Shown: positions 27,976 through 37,482 of the stretch, in pieces | How the letters are laid out: the number at the start of each line of letters is the position of its first letter | Position numbering within the stretch: position 1 is the first letter of the stretch | Source of the DNA: an uncultured delta proteobacterium | Lineage (GTDB): Bacteria; Desulfobacterota; Desulfobaccia; Desulfobaccales; 0-14-0-80-60-11 | Direction: 5' to 3' | Assembly: GCA_963812015.1 (NCBI GenBank) | Contig: CAWETI010000002.1 | Coordinates: forward strand, 640,001 to 704,000 | DNA length: 64,000 nucleotides | Position numbers and translations under genes: made by a program | Notes under the pieces: model-generated | What the model was told of the DNA's origin: nothing | Database searches by the model: none | Seen by the model: only the letters and a program-made list of their open reading frames with translations

Positions 27976-28050
27976 GCCGGCATAGCTCAGTGGTAGAGCA
28001 GCTGATTCGTAATCAGCAGGCCCGGGGTTCGACCCCCCGTGCCGGCTCCA
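27976..28050 (+). tRNA. tRNA-Thr(CGT)
   Basis: GCCGGCA/TGCCGGC acceptor stem, anticodon arm GCTGA-TTCGTAA-TCAGC, GGTTCGA T-loop, encoded CCA. Confidence 0.97.
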
Positions 28051-29117: not shown

Positions 29118-29149
29118 TTTTGATATGCAGTTTTAGGGGGATTAAGGCG

Positions 29150-29752
29150 ATGGAAAAAAATGAGCTGACGATTATAGCTTATCACGAGGCGGGCCATGCT
29201 GTTATGTATTATGTAACAAAAAAGAAACATATGGGTGTGTCAATAATACCAGATGGAAGCAATTTGGGTATTGTTAAAGAGGCTCCGATCGACACTCATA
29301 GTCTAAGCTATAATCACTATCGAGAGGCAATTATAATGATGGCTGGTAGAATAGCTGAAAGTATATATAGGGCAGAAGAAATTGATTTTTCTGGCTGTAT
29401 AATGGATGCCGCAGATTATGGTGTTGGATTTTACGATCCAGGCGAAACTCTCGATGCTTTTTTAAATTATATATTCCATTATACACACGATTTAGTGAAG
29501 AAATGGTGGCCTGAAATCGAAATGTTAGCAAAAGAACTTTTGGATAAGAAAGAGCTTAGTTATGTAAAGGCATACAAATTGATAAAAGAAACTCATAAGC
29601 GCAGAATACTTGGTGAAAGATATGAAGAGGAAAAAGATAAGGATAAATTAATGAGAAAGAAATTGATGGAGTATGGCAGAAAACATAAAATTCAAGAATT
29701 AAAGTTTAAAATAGAAAGCTTACAAAAGAAGTTAGAAACGCTAATAGCTTAA
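29150..29752 (+). CDS. Stand-alone peptidase M41-like (HExxH) protein
   Basis: IAYHEAGHAV and MMAGRIAE, with no AAA or TM domains. Confidence 0.7.
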   Translation: MEKNELTIIAYHEAGHAVMYYVTKKKHMGVSIIPDGSNLGIVKEAPIDTHSLSYNHYREAIIMMAGRIAESIYRAEEIDFSGCIMDAADYGVGFYDPGETLDAFLNYIFHYTHDLVKKWWPEIEMLAKELLDKKELSYVKAYKLIKETHKRRILGERYEEEKDKDKLMRKKLMEYGRKHKIQELKFKIESLQKKLETLIA

Positions 29753-32488: not shown

Positions 32489-33583
32489 GTGAATTTTCCT
32501 GAAAGAATATATGAATTATTAAAACTTCCCCCCCGCAAAAGAGGAAAGCTCATCCTCGTCCTCGGTGCAGGAATCAGCACTCTTTCTCGAATTCGTCACC
32601 CCAGCGTCGTTCTTCAAGAAAACCCAATTACACAATGTATAGAATGCAATCATAGCTCAAGGTATTATGAAGAACAGAGAGCTATTTGGTCTTGGTATGA
32701 ATACAATAGAATGTATTCTAGGAATGTATTGCCCCCTTTTGCATATTATTTCATAGGCAAACTTTGTTCATTAAAACTTGTAAGAAGTATTATTACAACA
32801 AATTATGATTCATATTTAACGTCAATTTTCAAAAAAGATAGAACTCTCCCAAATTATGTAATAAATCCGGTCCTGCGAAATACCGAAGTTGATCACTCGG
32901 GTTTTAGGTCGTTCCATGAATCTAATATATTGCGTATATTTTCTCTGCACGGTAGTTTTGATTGGGCTCAATTCAAGAATTGCCATTGCATTGTAAATCT
33001 TCCGTCGTGGGTTGTTGGGACAAACCTTTGGCGTGTGCCCAAAGAGTGGGGAGGTGTTGTATATCATGATTACGATCCCCTCTTCGGGCATAAGCCGCTT
33101 CCCACTGGGGAAGCTCAGCATTATATTGATTGGCTTGTTGGGCGGGAGCCATTCCGTCGAGAAATAGATGGAGCACTAAGAGAAATTAATTGGGCGGTCA
33201 AAAGGGATGGCCACATACTTTTATTAGGGTTTAGAGGGACCCATTGTCCCAGATTGCCCACATGGGATGAAGAAATCTCTGAGCCTATCGCGGATGCCGC
33301 TGAGAAAATTCCAACCCTCATGGTTCTAACCGAGCCACAAGCAGAGGAAAGCAAACAAGGCATACCCACTGGGCCTACCAGCGACGAACTAAGCTGGCTA
33401 ATTCGGGAGCTTTCCAAGAAACAATATGGATCCGTAGAAGTATCTCCAAATATAGACGAGTGGTTTCTCAAGACATTTAAAGGATCGGTTCTTGATCCAA
33501 AATCTATCCAGGAAGAATATATTTTTAATTGGATTTACAAAGGGCTTTTTTTAAGACCACGTGAATTTGAGGGTAACCCATGA
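32489..33583 (+). CDS. SIR2-like domain protein
   Basis: LVLGAGIS, IITTNYD, SLHGS, LLLGF. Confidence 0.8.
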   Translation: MNFPERIYELLKLPPRKRGKLILVLGAGISTLSRIRHPSVVLQENPITQCIECNHSSRYYEEQRAIWSWYEYNRMYSRNVLPPFAYYFIGKLCSLKLVRSIITTNYDSYLTSIFKKDRTLPNYVINPVLRNTEVDHSGFRSFHESNILRIFSLHGSFDWAQFKNCHCIVNLPSWVVGTNLWRVPKEWGGVVYHDYDPLFGHKPLPTGEAQHYIDWLVGREPFRREIDGALREINWAVKRDGHILLLGFRGTHCPRLPTWDEEISEPIADAAEKIPTLMVLTEPQAEESKQGIPTGPTSDELSWLIRELSKKQYGSVEVSPNIDEWFLKTFKGSVLDPKSIQEEYIFNWIYKGLFLRPREFEGNP

Positions 33584-35880
33584 CAAGCAAAGGTGAGAGC
33601 ATTATCCTAGGAGATTTTGGGTTTAAGATAATCTTATTTCGCGTTCGAGCCGGATACGAAAAAGATATTGTAACTATGCTGAATGATTATCTGACAGAGG
33701 AAATTAATGAAAAGACGAATATTATTGAGTTTAAGATTTATAAGGTACTAGGATTATATGACATAATGATTATATTGCGCTGTAAGAATTTCCATCACGA
33801 TCTATTAGAAAGAGGGACTTTTGACCATGTTATTCAAAGCAATGAAATTCTTTGTTATAATCTTTATATGCCTAAAGCTAATCAATTTAACCTTAATAAT
33901 GACCTAAAAGATGGGATATTTATTAGTTTACTTAAACTTAGATTGGAGGCCCTTCTTGATTTTGGAATAGATATAACAAATGCATTAGCTATATATATGG
34001 AAGAGAAGAGAGATTTGATAGTCTTAGGAGGATTGGGCTGGAATGAGTTATTAATTATACACCCTCATAATTTTCAAAAAGAAGAATTAGAATACATTTT
34101 TAGTAAGTTTATATATGGCACCTCATCACTCTACCTTCCTGTAAATGGGAAGAATTACCCACTCATCCACAAAACATATTCTTTTTTAGGGGTAAGTTAT
34201 GATGTTATGGACAATTTAGAAAATACATTTCCTTCTAGTTTTGATGATTCGTCAACAGGACCTTGCCCAAGACTCCTCATATCCGTACCTGCACATAATT
34301 TTGAATTAGTTAATAAGAATATTCCAAAGATTTTTAGAAAAGGAAAAAATCATTTTGACTATGATAGACCACAAGTTATGACCGGAATTTATGATATTTC
34401 GCTCTCTTTTAAGAAAGGAACATGGGGCAGATTCCTCCAAAGCATTATGGATTTCCGAAAAGTTCATTCTGAAATCGTATTGGATACACGTACAGAGCTC
34501 GGGGCTTATATTTCACCTATCGATGTTTCTTCTCCTTATAAAAAGAAGAAACATCAAAAGGATATATTTCCACAATTAATTTTGGGGGAAGATGAAACGA
34601 TAAAGATATTAGATAGGCCAGGTACAATACATGTAGTCTCTACTATTTATAGGTTTAATAATTTCTTTCAAGATCCTCTTATTAAAGACAGTTTTTTAGA
34701 TTTGTTTATACCGGCAAGCAAATTAATAAGCCGTGTTTTGGGTAAGAATAGTTCTGGAAAATGGAACTTTAACGATAAAGAAATTAACCAGTTGCTTGTA
34801 GAATTTCAATGGGCAATTCGGGAGAGGGCAATGGGGGCTTATCTGTTTACAGAAGATGATGAACATTCCTTTTCCCCCATTAGGGGAGGGCTTCAGAAAA
34901 TATTATTGGCCATGGAGTCTATCCCGTATAGCATTTTGAATAAACTTGTTAATAGGGATTTTCCTTGGCAAGGGTTTATTTCAATAGGTTTAAAAGAAGA
35001 GCCAATGCATTTTTTGGAAAATCTGCACATTCCTTTCGACCATGCGTTATATCCTGAGAAATACTGGTGGTGTATCATTCACGAAATAGGACATATGTTA
35101 GCTGGTTTATGGAATATACTCGATGAAAATGATGCAGCAATTAAATATGCAATGAACATATTGCCGAATATATTGCCTAAGCCATTTAAAAATTTAGCCG
35201 ACAACTGCTTTGCTGATACATTTGATTTTATAATAGGTTTCCTATGCAATAGATATCTATATTTCAATGTTTGCTGGCCATTCCTTTTAGAAAACATTGA
35301 AAGGCAGGATCAACCATACTCATTTCTAAAGCGTCATATTACCAGACATTTTTTTGTCTGGATTTTTGAAAAAACATATTTAAACAAAAAAATTAACTTA
35401 CAAAGCTTGGATGATCGCGATATTTTAAATAGAGAATGTAAAATGCTTTTAAGAAATTTAGAATCGGTTCATCAAGTGAAGGAATATTTTTCAAAAAATA
35501 TTTCTGATAAAAATGCATTTTCAAATGATATTGTATTAGAAACTTTCCCTTATTTAAAATTAATTGACCACTATTCAAAATACTTTATTCCGGTGGTTAA
35601 GTTTATGAAAGAACTCAAAAGCGAATATCATTCGGCAAGATTCAAAAGAATGATTAAAAAAATAGAAGTAAAGGGAGATATATTGGGACATCAAGAAATT
35701 AAATATCCACACCTTATTCCTCTTAAGATAATGGAAAATATATTATATGCTAAAAAAGAATACGACACAAAATTTAGAACTAAAATGGCGACAATCCTTT
35801 CGCTTTATTGGTATTCTCATAATTTTTTCCTGCCTTCAATTTTAAACTTATGCAAAAAGGAAGTTTCTAACTCTTCTTAA
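33580..35880 (+). CDS. 766-aa hypothetical protein with HExxH motif
   Basis: Long AT-rich ORF with ATGA overlap to the SIR2 gene. IIHEIGH motif and repeated G-x-(Y/W)-(D/N) motifs in the N-terminal half. Confidence 0.8.
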   Translation: MTSKGESIILGDFGFKIILFRVRAGYEKDIVTMLNDYLTEEINEKTNIIEFKIYKVLGLYDIMIILRCKNFHHDLLERGTFDHVIQSNEILCYNLYMPKANQFNLNNDLKDGIFISLLKLRLEALLDFGIDITNALAIYMEEKRDLIVLGGLGWNELLIIHPHNFQKEELEYIFSKFIYGTSSLYLPVNGKNYPLIHKTYSFLGVSYDVMDNLENTFPSSFDDSSTGPCPRLLISVPAHNFELVNKNIPKIFRKGKNHFDYDRPQVMTGIYDISLSFKKGTWGRFLQSIMDFRKVHSEIVLDTRTELGAYISPIDVSSPYKKKKHQKDIFPQLILGEDETIKILDRPGTIHVVSTIYRFNNFFQDPLIKDSFLDLFIPASKLISRVLGKNSSGKWNFNDKEINQLLVEFQWAIRERAMGAYLFTEDDEHSFSPIRGGLQKILLAMESIPYSILNKLVNRDFPWQGFISIGLKEEPMHFLENLHIPFDHALYPEKYWWCIIHEIGHMLAGLWNILDENDAAIKYAMNILPNILPKPFKNLADNCFADTFDFIIGFLCNRYLYFNVCWPFLLENIERQDQPYSFLKRHITRHFFVWIFEKTYLNKKINLQSLDDRDILNRECKMLLRNLESVHQVKEYFSKNISDKNAFSNDIVLETFPYLKLIDHYSKYFIPVVKFMKELKSEYHSARFKRMIKKIEVKGDILGHQEIKYPHLIPLKIMENILYAKKEYDTKFRTKMATILSLYWYSHNFFLPSILNLCKKEVSNSS

Positions 35881-35959: not shown

Positions 35960-36676
35960 ATGAGTCGCCTTCTCGTCCCAACGCTCGGCCCATCAGATTG
36001 GCGTCGCTTGCTCACAGACCCGTCAACGCAGTGGGTTCGTGGGAAGTCCGCATACGAGACCGCCGTGGCATGGGAGGCGGCTCGCACAACGCCTCGTGGT
36101 CTCCCCTTGCAAGTTTGCCAGATCCTGGATACGCAAGATGACCTGCGCGGAGCCAAGCTGCTGCTGGGTATTCCCGAACATCGCGTCTATCTTCCAGGTG
36201 GTGGACATGCTTCTCAGACGGATCTCTGGGCACTCCTGCGCAATGAAGGCCACCTCATTTCGCTCGCCGTCGAGGGAAAGTCGGGCGAGTCATTCGACAA
36301 GACGGTCGGCGAGTGGCTGACGAGCGCAAAGCCCAAAAGCGGGAAACCAAGCCGGCTCGCCTTCTTGCGCGAACGCCTCGGCTTATCTCACGTAGAGGTC
36401 ACTCACATCCGCTATCAACTTCTACACCGGACTGCATCGGCACTGCTCGAGGCGGAACGGTTCATGGCTGACTTCGCTGTGCTTCTTATCCAGTCATTCG
36501 GCGGCCAGAACGATGCCGCGAGTTTCTCAGACTTTCAGGCGTTTGGGCGCCTGTTCGATCTTGAACTCAACTTGGGCGAACTCAGTGCGGCCAAGGTGCC
36601 AGGCAACCCGCGGTTGCTGCTCGGTTGGGTCGCCTGCCGGGCCGCCAAAAAACGGGGTCTTGAGGCTGCGGTCTAA
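35960..36676 (+). CDS. DUF6946-like PD-(D/E)xK-fold protein, probable gene cassette
   Basis: DWRRLL.DP..QW..GKSA, PEH, SQTDLW, AVEGK, RYQLLHR. Stop lies inside GTCTAAC. Confidence 0.7.
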   Translation: MSRLLVPTLGPSDWRRLLTDPSTQWVRGKSAYETAVAWEAARTTPRGLPLQVCQILDTQDDLRGAKLLLGIPEHRVYLPGGGHASQTDLWALLRNEGHLISLAVEGKSGESFDKTVGEWLTSAKPKSGKPSRLAFLRERLGLSHVEVTHIRYQLLHRTASALLEAERFMADFAVLLIQSFGGQNDAASFSDFQAFGRLFDLELNLGELSAAKVPGNPRLLLGWVACRAAKKRGLEAAV

Positions 36677-36695: not shown

Positions 36696-36810
36696 CCAAA
36701 CCGCTTGTTGCAGTCAGCCGGCGGTGTCAGTCTTATACGGACAGGAAACCGAATCTCCGCATTTTATGTGGATCAATCTAATTATTGTGAGATCGCAAGA
36801 GGAGATTATT

Positions 36811-37482
36811 ATGGACCAGAATAACTGGATCATAATTTTGATGATCGGAGCTGGTTTGCTTGGAGGAATTACTAACTATTTTAGAATTGAGCAAGAAGAG
36901 AAGAGCTTGTTCTCGTTTTCAAAGAGTGTTTTAATGGGCGTATCCGCATCCCTATTGATACCTTTGTTTCTAAAAATGATATCAAGCGATCTACTTAATG
37001 GAAGCATTTTTGATAGTTCAAGGCAGTTTATTTTATTTGGATTTTGTCTCATTGCATCACTTTCTTCGAAAGCATTCATTGAGACGATCTCTAATCGTCT
37101 GATAAATGAGGTCAAGGATACGAAAGAAAAATTGGAAGACATAAAAAAGGATATAGAACCTATTATTTCTAAGGAAAGCGAAGCACAAGAAGAACTAGCA
37201 AACTCTTTCATAAATGGTACCGGTTTCAGTCTAGATGAAGACGCAAATAAAGTCATAAATTCTCTTGGCAGTAGCAGATATGCATGGAGAACTCCGAGAG
37301 GAATTGCTCGAGAAATAGGGTTGCCACTAGAAAACGTCTTGAGCTCATTGGATTGGCTATCATTAAACCGTTTGACTGTTAGGGCAAGTGAAAAAGGGCG
37401 ATGGGGGCTGACTTTATTAGGCCGTAATATCCTTGCAAAGATATCTTCTGCGAAGGAATCTGAGCAAAAAGAAAAAGACTGA
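36811..37482 (+). CDS. YEATS-associated three-TM-helix protein with a winged-helix-like tail
   Basis: GAGLLGGITNYF...MGVSASLLIPLFLKMISS...FGFCLIASLSSKAFIETIS. AGGAG RBS. Confidence 0.7.
   Translation: MDQNNWIIILMIGAGLLGGITNYFRIEQEEKSLFSFSKSVLMGVSASLLIPLFLKMISSDLLNGSIFDSSRQFILFGFCLIASLSSKAFIETISNRLINEVKDTKEKLEDIKKDIEPIISKESEAQEELANSFINGTGFSLDEDANKVINSLGSSRYAWRTPRGIAREIGLPLENVLSSLDWLSLNRLTVRASEKGRWGLTLLGRNILAKISSAKESEQKEKD

Follow-up and report, generated by a model that had tools for sequence, protein, structure and literature searches.

Several bacterial defence systems use a SIR2 protein (sirtuin) as effector, among them Thoeris (ThsA), DSR1/2, Sir2-HerA, SPARSA, Avs5 and Kongming (KomC). 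According to PMC10981675, the NADase activity of DSR2 requires a catalytic Asn and a catalytic His; in PMC12700824, sirtuins of the SIR2_2 type are reported to be devoid of a zinc module. Here, we describe a three-gene cassette found in a stretch of 64,000 nucleotides (hereafter, the window) from an uncultured delta proteobacterium (positions 640,001 to 704,000 of contig CAWETI010000002.1, assembly GCA_963812015.1). The cassette encodes, in this order, (i) a protein of 73 amino acids (aa) from a small open reading frame (ORF); (ii) a 364-aa sirtuin; and (iii) a 766-aa protein with an HExxH motif, hereafter the partner (Table 1). It resembles the above-mentioned systems in that it has a SIR2_2-like sirtuin with TTNYD and HG motifs, forms an operon in a defence island and would probably act through depletion of nicotinamide adenine dinucleotide (NAD+). 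But while those systems have a TIR, HerA, Argonaute, STAND or ITPase partner, the cassette has none of them and shows instead extra conserved Cys residues and a third, small gene. Membership of Thoeris, DSR, Sir2-HerA, SPARSA, Avs5 or Kongming was rejected: the cognate partner or fused domain (TIR, the long DSR C-terminus, HerA, the prokaryotic Argonaute pAgo, STAND, KomA/B) was not found, and the sirtuin is a stand-alone protein of 364 aa.

The partner can be compared with four other groups. Lrp domains bind amino acids at a G-x-x-D turn. Proteins with the Lrp/AsnC ligand-binding (RAM) domain and dimeric alpha+beta barrel proteins have this turn, and their fold, in common with the three N-terminal repeats of the partner, which nevertheless has no DNA-binding helix-turn-helix (HTH) and carries three RAM-like copies fused to an HExxH domain. 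Lamassu combines a constant SMC sensor with exchangeable effectors, including SIR2; the shared logic is that of one conserved component, swappable effectors and a small accessory gene, but the partner lacks an SMC or ATPase core and its fold is unrelated. ImmA, IrrE and CapP are M78/IrrE-type zinc peptidase systems, a type that includes RosmerTA, whose antitoxin is a zinc peptidase (10.1101/2022.05.11.491447). The partner family has the HExxH motif and downstream Glu of this type, as well as weak M78 profile similarity around the active helix, and in both cases a peptidase is paired with variable toxic genes. In contrast to them, it has no HTH, possesses three N-terminal ferredoxin/RAM domains in a protein of 720-770 aa and, in the clade of the window copy, shows Asn at the third ligand. 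RosmerTA membership was rejected, as neither an HTH nor an M78 match was obtained in Pfam or PADLOC and ferredoxin repeats are present instead. Finally, HExxH proteins of zincin-like fold can be alpha-ketoglutarate (alphaKG)-dependent oxygenases, according to PMC12636437. The alphaKG-HExxH enzymes of ribosomally made peptides with post-translational modifications (RiPPs) also combine an HExxH protein with an adjacent small ORF and a non-canonical third ligand, whereas the partner family mostly retains the peptidase-type Glu; membership was rejected in view of the absence of any NCBIfam match and of radical SAM or other tailoring genes kept nearby.

The cassette is real, conserved and apparently undescribed, and it lies in a defence-rich integrative element. 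The literature search, which did not extend to subscription papers or to the supplementary files of large screens, where it may be listed, yielded no description of it; the accessible parts of PMC9503650, PMC13464706 and PMC13069673 do not mention it, and Lrp/AsnC-type ligand domains fused to a peptidase were not met as an immune sensor in the literature searched. A preliminary description of the window had proposed an uncatalogued two-gene system, and both ORFs, as well as the ATGA overlap that joins them, were as given there. The pair is also conserved, as that proposal demanded. Among the eight close-clade loci fetched (L numbers denote loci; G numbers, genomes), the sirtuin precedes the partner in all four metagenome loci that include DNA ahead of an intact partner start (L002, L003, L004, L006); three of the others start within the partner gene, and L008 has a DDE transposase immediately ahead of a partner fragment. 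The same order is found, at around 25% identity, in the distant genome G340. The ATGA overlap is also present in L002, L003 and L004; order and overlap are retained at 50% identity. A profile of the sirtuin clade matched 2 of 401 genomes, both of them with an adjoining partner and both part of the profile query. As for base composition, the GC content is 41% in the sirtuin gene and 32% in the partner gene, correctly described as AT-rich, versus 58% in the genome.

The proposal of two genes, on the other hand, fell short, as the conserved 73-aa ORF lies upstream of them. This ORF was found in the three loci with enough DNA (L002, L003, L004), with 45-54% identity and E-values from 1e-17 to 5e-22. 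Its ratio of nonsynonymous to synonymous substitution rates (dN/dS), obtained from comparisons among these three loci (synonymous sites are saturated against the window copy), is approximately 0.10-0.19, similar to that of both large genes, and indicates that the small gene is under purifying selection. A purine-rich ribosome-binding site precedes the small ORF in every locus that has it, whereas the sirtuin gene starts with GTG without a clear Shine-Dalgarno sequence in four close-clade loci; this difference suggests that more small protein than sirtuin is made. The 73-aa protein, which has no Pfam, PHROG, PADLOC or NCBIfam match, is a candidate inhibitor or substrate. The numbers of promoters and terminators were at chance level or close to it. 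In the G340 locus, a 65-aa ORF with a strong ribosome-binding site, followed by a terminator-like hairpin (by reading), lies before the distant sirtuin. It resembles the small protein by eye and is a possible analogue, but it is counted as a positional counterpart only, because its score against the small-protein profile was not significant. A comparable small ORF was not seen, by reading, before the RelA/SpoT-linked, the AAA-linked or two of the four HD-linked members of the partner family dealt with below.

The sirtuin contains the motifs GAGIS, CIEC (residues 50-53), TTNYD (with N105), LHGS (with H154) and CHC (165-167), and N105 and H154 match the catalytic Asn and His of DSR2 by motif (PMC10981675). 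As for the SIR2_2/SIRim immune NADases, the Pfam SIR2_2 match (E 1e-4) reaches 22.8 bits versus a cut-off of 24.5, a value attained only together with neighbouring stretches; PADLOC similarity is weak (best E 5e-4) and does not extend beyond the catalytic motifs. The sirtuin fold was nonetheless recovered from the predicted model by structure comparison (Foldseek E 2.5e-7; Z 13.1), in a model with a pLDDT value (local distance difference test, predicted) of 68 whose Cys segments are below 50. A Rossmann-like sirtuin fold, GxGxS and the catalytic Asn and His, i.e., the features of the SIR2 superfamily, are thus all found, which bears out the earlier identification; hydrolysis of NAD+ would be the probable activity. 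The extra Cys motifs noted earlier are a different matter: C50, C53, H55, C165 and C167 are invariant among the nine close-clade sirtuins, but the CxxC is absent from the distant G340 sirtuin and, therefore, is not a general feature.

The model of the partner, built with a 116-row alignment, is of high confidence (pLDDT 93.5; predicted template modelling score 0.94) and consists of three ferredoxin/RAM-like domains, a helical linker, an HExxH metallopeptidase-like domain and a helical tail. Repeats 1 and 2 (residues 9-207) resemble a dimeric alpha+beta barrel pair (Z 14.3 to 2pgc; 177 residues aligned; root-mean-square deviation, rmsd, 3.2), and repeat 3 (residues 217-311) resembles the RAM domain (Z 9.5 to the Lrp structure 8q90; 80 residues aligned; rmsd 3.1), while profile matches of the N-terminal region were weak (PH1519, E 0.067; the RAM protein 2zbc, E 0.23). 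The three turns pointed out in the preliminary description (VLGLYDI, GLGWNEL, MTGIYDI) do mark structural repeats: the three domains are homologous to one another, with hhalign probabilities of 90, 86 and 70%. The ferredoxin-like fold and the G-x-x-D turn characteristic of the Lrp/AsnC RAM domain are both present, and the near invariance of the G-x-x-D/E turns in the family alignment (D61 and G153 in 116/116; G269 and D272 in 113/116) argues for retained pockets. The partner was rightly said to differ from TIR, HerA and pAgo, as it has no database match and a different modelled architecture, and also to lack a Walker A motif: by reading, W comes after the sole GxxxxGK, which relatives do not retain.

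In the C-terminal part of the model, short strands precede the HExxH helix, which is followed by a second helix, that is, the order of gluzincins. The IIHEIGH (HExxH at 501-505) and NCFAD (542-546) motifs are present, and H501, E502, H505 and R589 are invariant in the 116 family members. At position 542, the Glu that serves gluzincins as third ligand on the downstream helix is found in 107 of the 116, but it is replaced by Asn in exactly nine close-clade sequences, the window protein and eight close relatives; the unusual Asn is thus a clade-specific change. Position 586 is His in 9/9 close relatives, whereas among 111 others it is Tyr in 94 and His in nine. The alignment indicates, then, that the close clade has lost the third zinc ligand kept by the rest of the family, and since N542 replaces the family Glu, peptidase activity is least certain for the window copy. 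An hhalign comparison with an M78/IrrE set (seven loci, six usable) gave a weak but position-specific match (probability 60%, E 9e-5; control region, 0.1%). Sequence searches of the PDB with close alignments gave no match, and a fold search of BFVD gave none at E<=0.001; matches to ribosomal eS1 (E 0.04) were taken as chance. A complex prediction for partner residues 8-620 with the sirtuin scored 0.00 and was taken as evidence neither way.

The sirtuin is one of several genes found coupled to the partner family. Among 12 readable loci, the coupled gene is (i) a sirtuin upstream, in six; (ii) an HD-motif protein downstream, in four; (iii) a RelA/SpoT synthetase, in one (G297; E 5e-20); and (iv) an AAA-type ATPase, in one (G366; E 3e-5; the G989 match is this same locus). 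The HD-motif proteins (a second copy in the window genome, G000, plus G232, G360 and G620) are unannotated and 390-410 aa long; their likeness to the HD fold is based on motifs and on features recorded in the Atlas, where HD is given for 16% of one 0.95 cluster, and HD-CE (Pfam PF24391) gave no match at the four loci. In a FastTree phylogeny of 123 sequences, the four HD-linked members form one clade (support 0.95-1.0), and support is 1.0 for the close SIR2 clade as well as for the clades of G340 and RelA/SpoT; no order of partner exchange is claimed, because the tree backbone is not resolved. As regards the SIR2-centred pair proposed earlier, the SIR2-containing cassette is indeed conserved, but the HExxH partner is the constant component and SIR2 one of at least four interchangeable neighbours, which follow the family tree. 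More distant HD-motif relatives either carry a fused receiver domain or adjoin radical SAM/SPASM genes. In L027, the gene coupled to a family member encodes a small alarmone synthetase that resembles PADLOC PDC-S33 (E 3e-8) and PHROG 2211.

An exhaustive search for the partner family returned 212 representatives at E<=0.001 and 143 at 1e-10, and 110 of the 148 other members listed are 680-800 aa long. Similar unnamed Atlas clusters are commonest in Verrucomicrobiota and Bacillota, and every relative with a name on record is a hypothetical protein. The 766-aa partner has no match in Pfam, PADLOC, NCBIfam or PHROG; among 60 members scanned with Pfam, none was above cut-off (one weak AsnC match, E 0.008), and no member tested has an NCBIfam match. 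No relatives were found in the plasmids, phages or viral contigs searched. A fused form of 1400-3995 aa was not found, which is weak evidence, and the seven longest members checked have only insertions or short extensions. Strong members occur in 6/401 genomes of the phylum, that of the window included; in 2/401 genomes of one large class, one of them new; and in 0/82 other genomes of the window's class, three samples that overlap. There were five further weak genome matches (E 1e-9 to 8e-4), and class-level searches around G297, G340, G232 and G360 gave no additional member.

The reading that we regard as the most likely, and as somewhat probable, is that of a mobile three-gene conflict cassette acting in abortive-infection defence, with the HExxH protein as sensor and activator and the sirtuin as NAD-depleting effector; proteolysis, ligand binding, activation and the anti-phage function are what we infer from sequences and models. 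The RAM-like pockets or the peptide groove of the HExxH protein would recognise a cue of infection, either a peptide or a metabolite resembling an amino acid; the HExxH protein would then activate the sirtuin, which would hydrolyse NAD+ and arrest the cell. For most family members, this switch would probably be proteolysis, by means of HExxH plus Glu. In the window clade, with its Asn for Glu, it could be either binding without cutting or, speculatively, a re-wired metal site with H586 as third ligand. The small protein, probably in excess, might restrain the sirtuin until it is cut or displaced, which is likewise speculative. The sign of the action, activation, is proposed because partner genes are broken beside whole effectors and a separate small candidate inhibitor is present.

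Under the opposite sign, the cassette would be a toxin-antitoxin or guard system in which the HExxH protein restrains the adjoining enzyme, so that its loss or its titration by a phage protein would free the sirtuin. The zinc peptidase antitoxin of RosmerTA, the tight translational coupling between sirtuin and partner, the toxin-type enzymes next to the family and the location of the cassettes on mobile elements all favour this explanation. It is, nevertheless, unlikely: at three of the four HD loci, those of the second G000 copy, G232 and G360, a split partner gene adjoins a whole HD gene (the G620 cassette is intact), and such breaks, provided that they are genuine, are more in keeping with an activator than with an antitoxin; besides, the SIR2 cassettes offer a separate small gene as inhibitor. 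That small gene, located ahead of both enzymes, is in turn an argument for a modification unit, in which the sirtuin would ADP-ribosylate or deacylate the small protein and the HExxH protein, with a re-wired three-His site, would hydroxylate or cleave it. The Glu-to-Asn and Tyr-to-His changes of the window clade, the alphaKG-dependent oxygenases among zincin-like HExxH proteins and a Cys-rich sirtuin whose fold is closest to protein-modifying sirtuins agree with it; but the lack of NCBIfam matches, of tailoring or transporter genes retained beside the cassette, and of comparable small ORFs (by reading) before the RelA/SpoT-linked, the AAA-linked and two of the four HD-linked members make it rather more unlikely. 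An oxygenase would also be ill suited to the host group, which is anaerobic.

A stress or nutrient regulator unrelated to viruses, whose RAM-like domains would sense amino acids in order to tune the pools of NAD+, (p)ppGpp or other nucleotides, would account for the conserved ligand-turn residues, the RelA/SpoT neighbour and the three loci with housekeeping neighbours. We nonetheless consider it improbable for a family that is rare, patchy, low in GC, often broken and located on integrative elements beside Dpd and restriction systems. That two independent cargo genes are adjacent by chance is contradicted by the conservation of their order down to 25% identity, and none of 401 genomes showed the sirtuin clade in the absence of the partner, so this explanation is very improbable. 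As for the defence reading itself, several observations weigh against it. The best structural matches of the sirtuin model, a mediocre one, are canonical deacylases (Z 13.1), while defence sirtuins reach Z 9-10; and the close-clade sirtuins keep four Cys and one His, unlike the SIR2_2 sirtuins reported without a zinc module (PMC12700824). No solved structure could be matched to the HExxH domain, the N-terminal domains having filled the whole-chain searches. The gene contexts come from 16 loci, from one phylum or metagenomes, versus 212 clusters; the RelA/SpoT and AAA pairings are one locus each, and the frameshifts in the partner genes of the HD loci may be assembly errors. Lastly, L001, L007 and L034 have housekeeping or transport neighbours, and the defence-neighbour counts are raw.

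The cassette lies in an integrative element of 57 kb and 47% GC, bounded by a tRNA-Thr(CGT) gene and, at the far end, by a repeat of its 3' end beside a tyrosine integrase, together with genes for a primase-like protein and a family A polymerase. The tRNA-Thr(CGT) 3' end occurs a third time, over at least 30 bases and without being called as a tRNA; this copy is possibly a further attachment site. The cargo includes DpdA, B, C, D, E, F, G, J and QueC, an HNH-HIT protein, DUF6946, YLATT and a DUF2779 nuclease. Restriction-modification genes adjoin the cassette or family member in L002, L004, L028 and L032, and nuclease, PIN, insertion sequence, tRNA plus integrase, or resolvase genes are found near L005, L027, L029, L030 and L031. 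The second family member of the window genome has a frameshift near residue 220-238, followed by the whole HD-motif gene, and adjoins a type ISP restriction enzyme; the small genes around it are similar to those of the 57-kb element, which suggests that it lies in a related element.

Table 1. Coordinates of the cassette, its element and related loci (window positions unless a genome or locus is named).
Feature	Position	Strand	Remarks
Small conserved protein, 73 aa	32192..32413	+	good ribosome-binding site; no family match
Stand-alone sirtuin, 364 aa, GTG start	32489..33583	+	Pfam SIR2_2 below cut-off, sirtuin fold
Sirtuin N105 and H154 codons	32801-32803, 32948-32950	+	both invariant in 9 close-clade sequences
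HExxH partner, 766 aa	33580..35880	+	unannotated family; confident model
Three ferredoxin-like repeats (residues ~9-96, 112-206, 220-308)	33604..34503	+	model, structure comparison
Metal-site region: H501-E502-H505 (35080-35094), N542 (35203-35205), H586, R589	35080..35346	+	family alignment
tRNA-Thr(CGT), left end of element	27976..28050	+	last 49 bases repeated at right end
49-base tRNA-Thr 3' repeat, right end of element	G000:C2:725480-725528		beyond window
Third tRNA-Thr(CGT) 3' end	G000:C2:810783	-	
Short stand-alone M41-like HEAGH peptidase fragment	29120-29752		at island start
HNH endonuclease fused to HIT hydrolase, 345 aa	29824-30861	-	
DUF6946	35960-36676		
YLATT three-transmembrane protein	36724-37482		after DUF6946; winged-helix-like C-terminal tail (by reading)
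Near-complete Dpd 7-deazaguanine DNA-modification system	43753-64000 + G000:C2:704001-712800		QueD/E/C, FolE-like, DpdC, A, B, D, J, G, F, E
Second family member, window genome	G000:C2:1621941-1625455 (L032:7942-11455)		
HD-motif proteins	L030:9407-10648, L029:5149-6351, L032:10265-11455, L034:7582-8760		motifs, unannotated
Small alarmone synthetase	L027:5676-6572		
65-aa ORF, G340 locus	L028:9633-9830	-	

The unnamed partner family, with at least 212 clusters, behaves like a constant sensor with exchangeable effectors, which is the pattern of major bacterial immune families. It may even be, although we put this forward as a doubtful possibility, that the triple-RAM plus gluzincin protein of 720-770 aa represents an immune sensor of a new class, namely, a metallopeptidase gated by its ligand, which activates the paired effector. 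The cue would then be amino-acid-like or a peptide, and the effectors would be a sirtuin NADase, an HD hydrolase, an alarmone synthetase or an ATPase; in the window clade, the peptidase would now be a re-wired or non-cutting switch that acts through the small third protein. The natural Glu-to-Asn variant and the SIR2 cassette with an intact site in G340 allow for a direct comparison between cutting and binding as the activating step, for which NAD+ provides an easy read-out.

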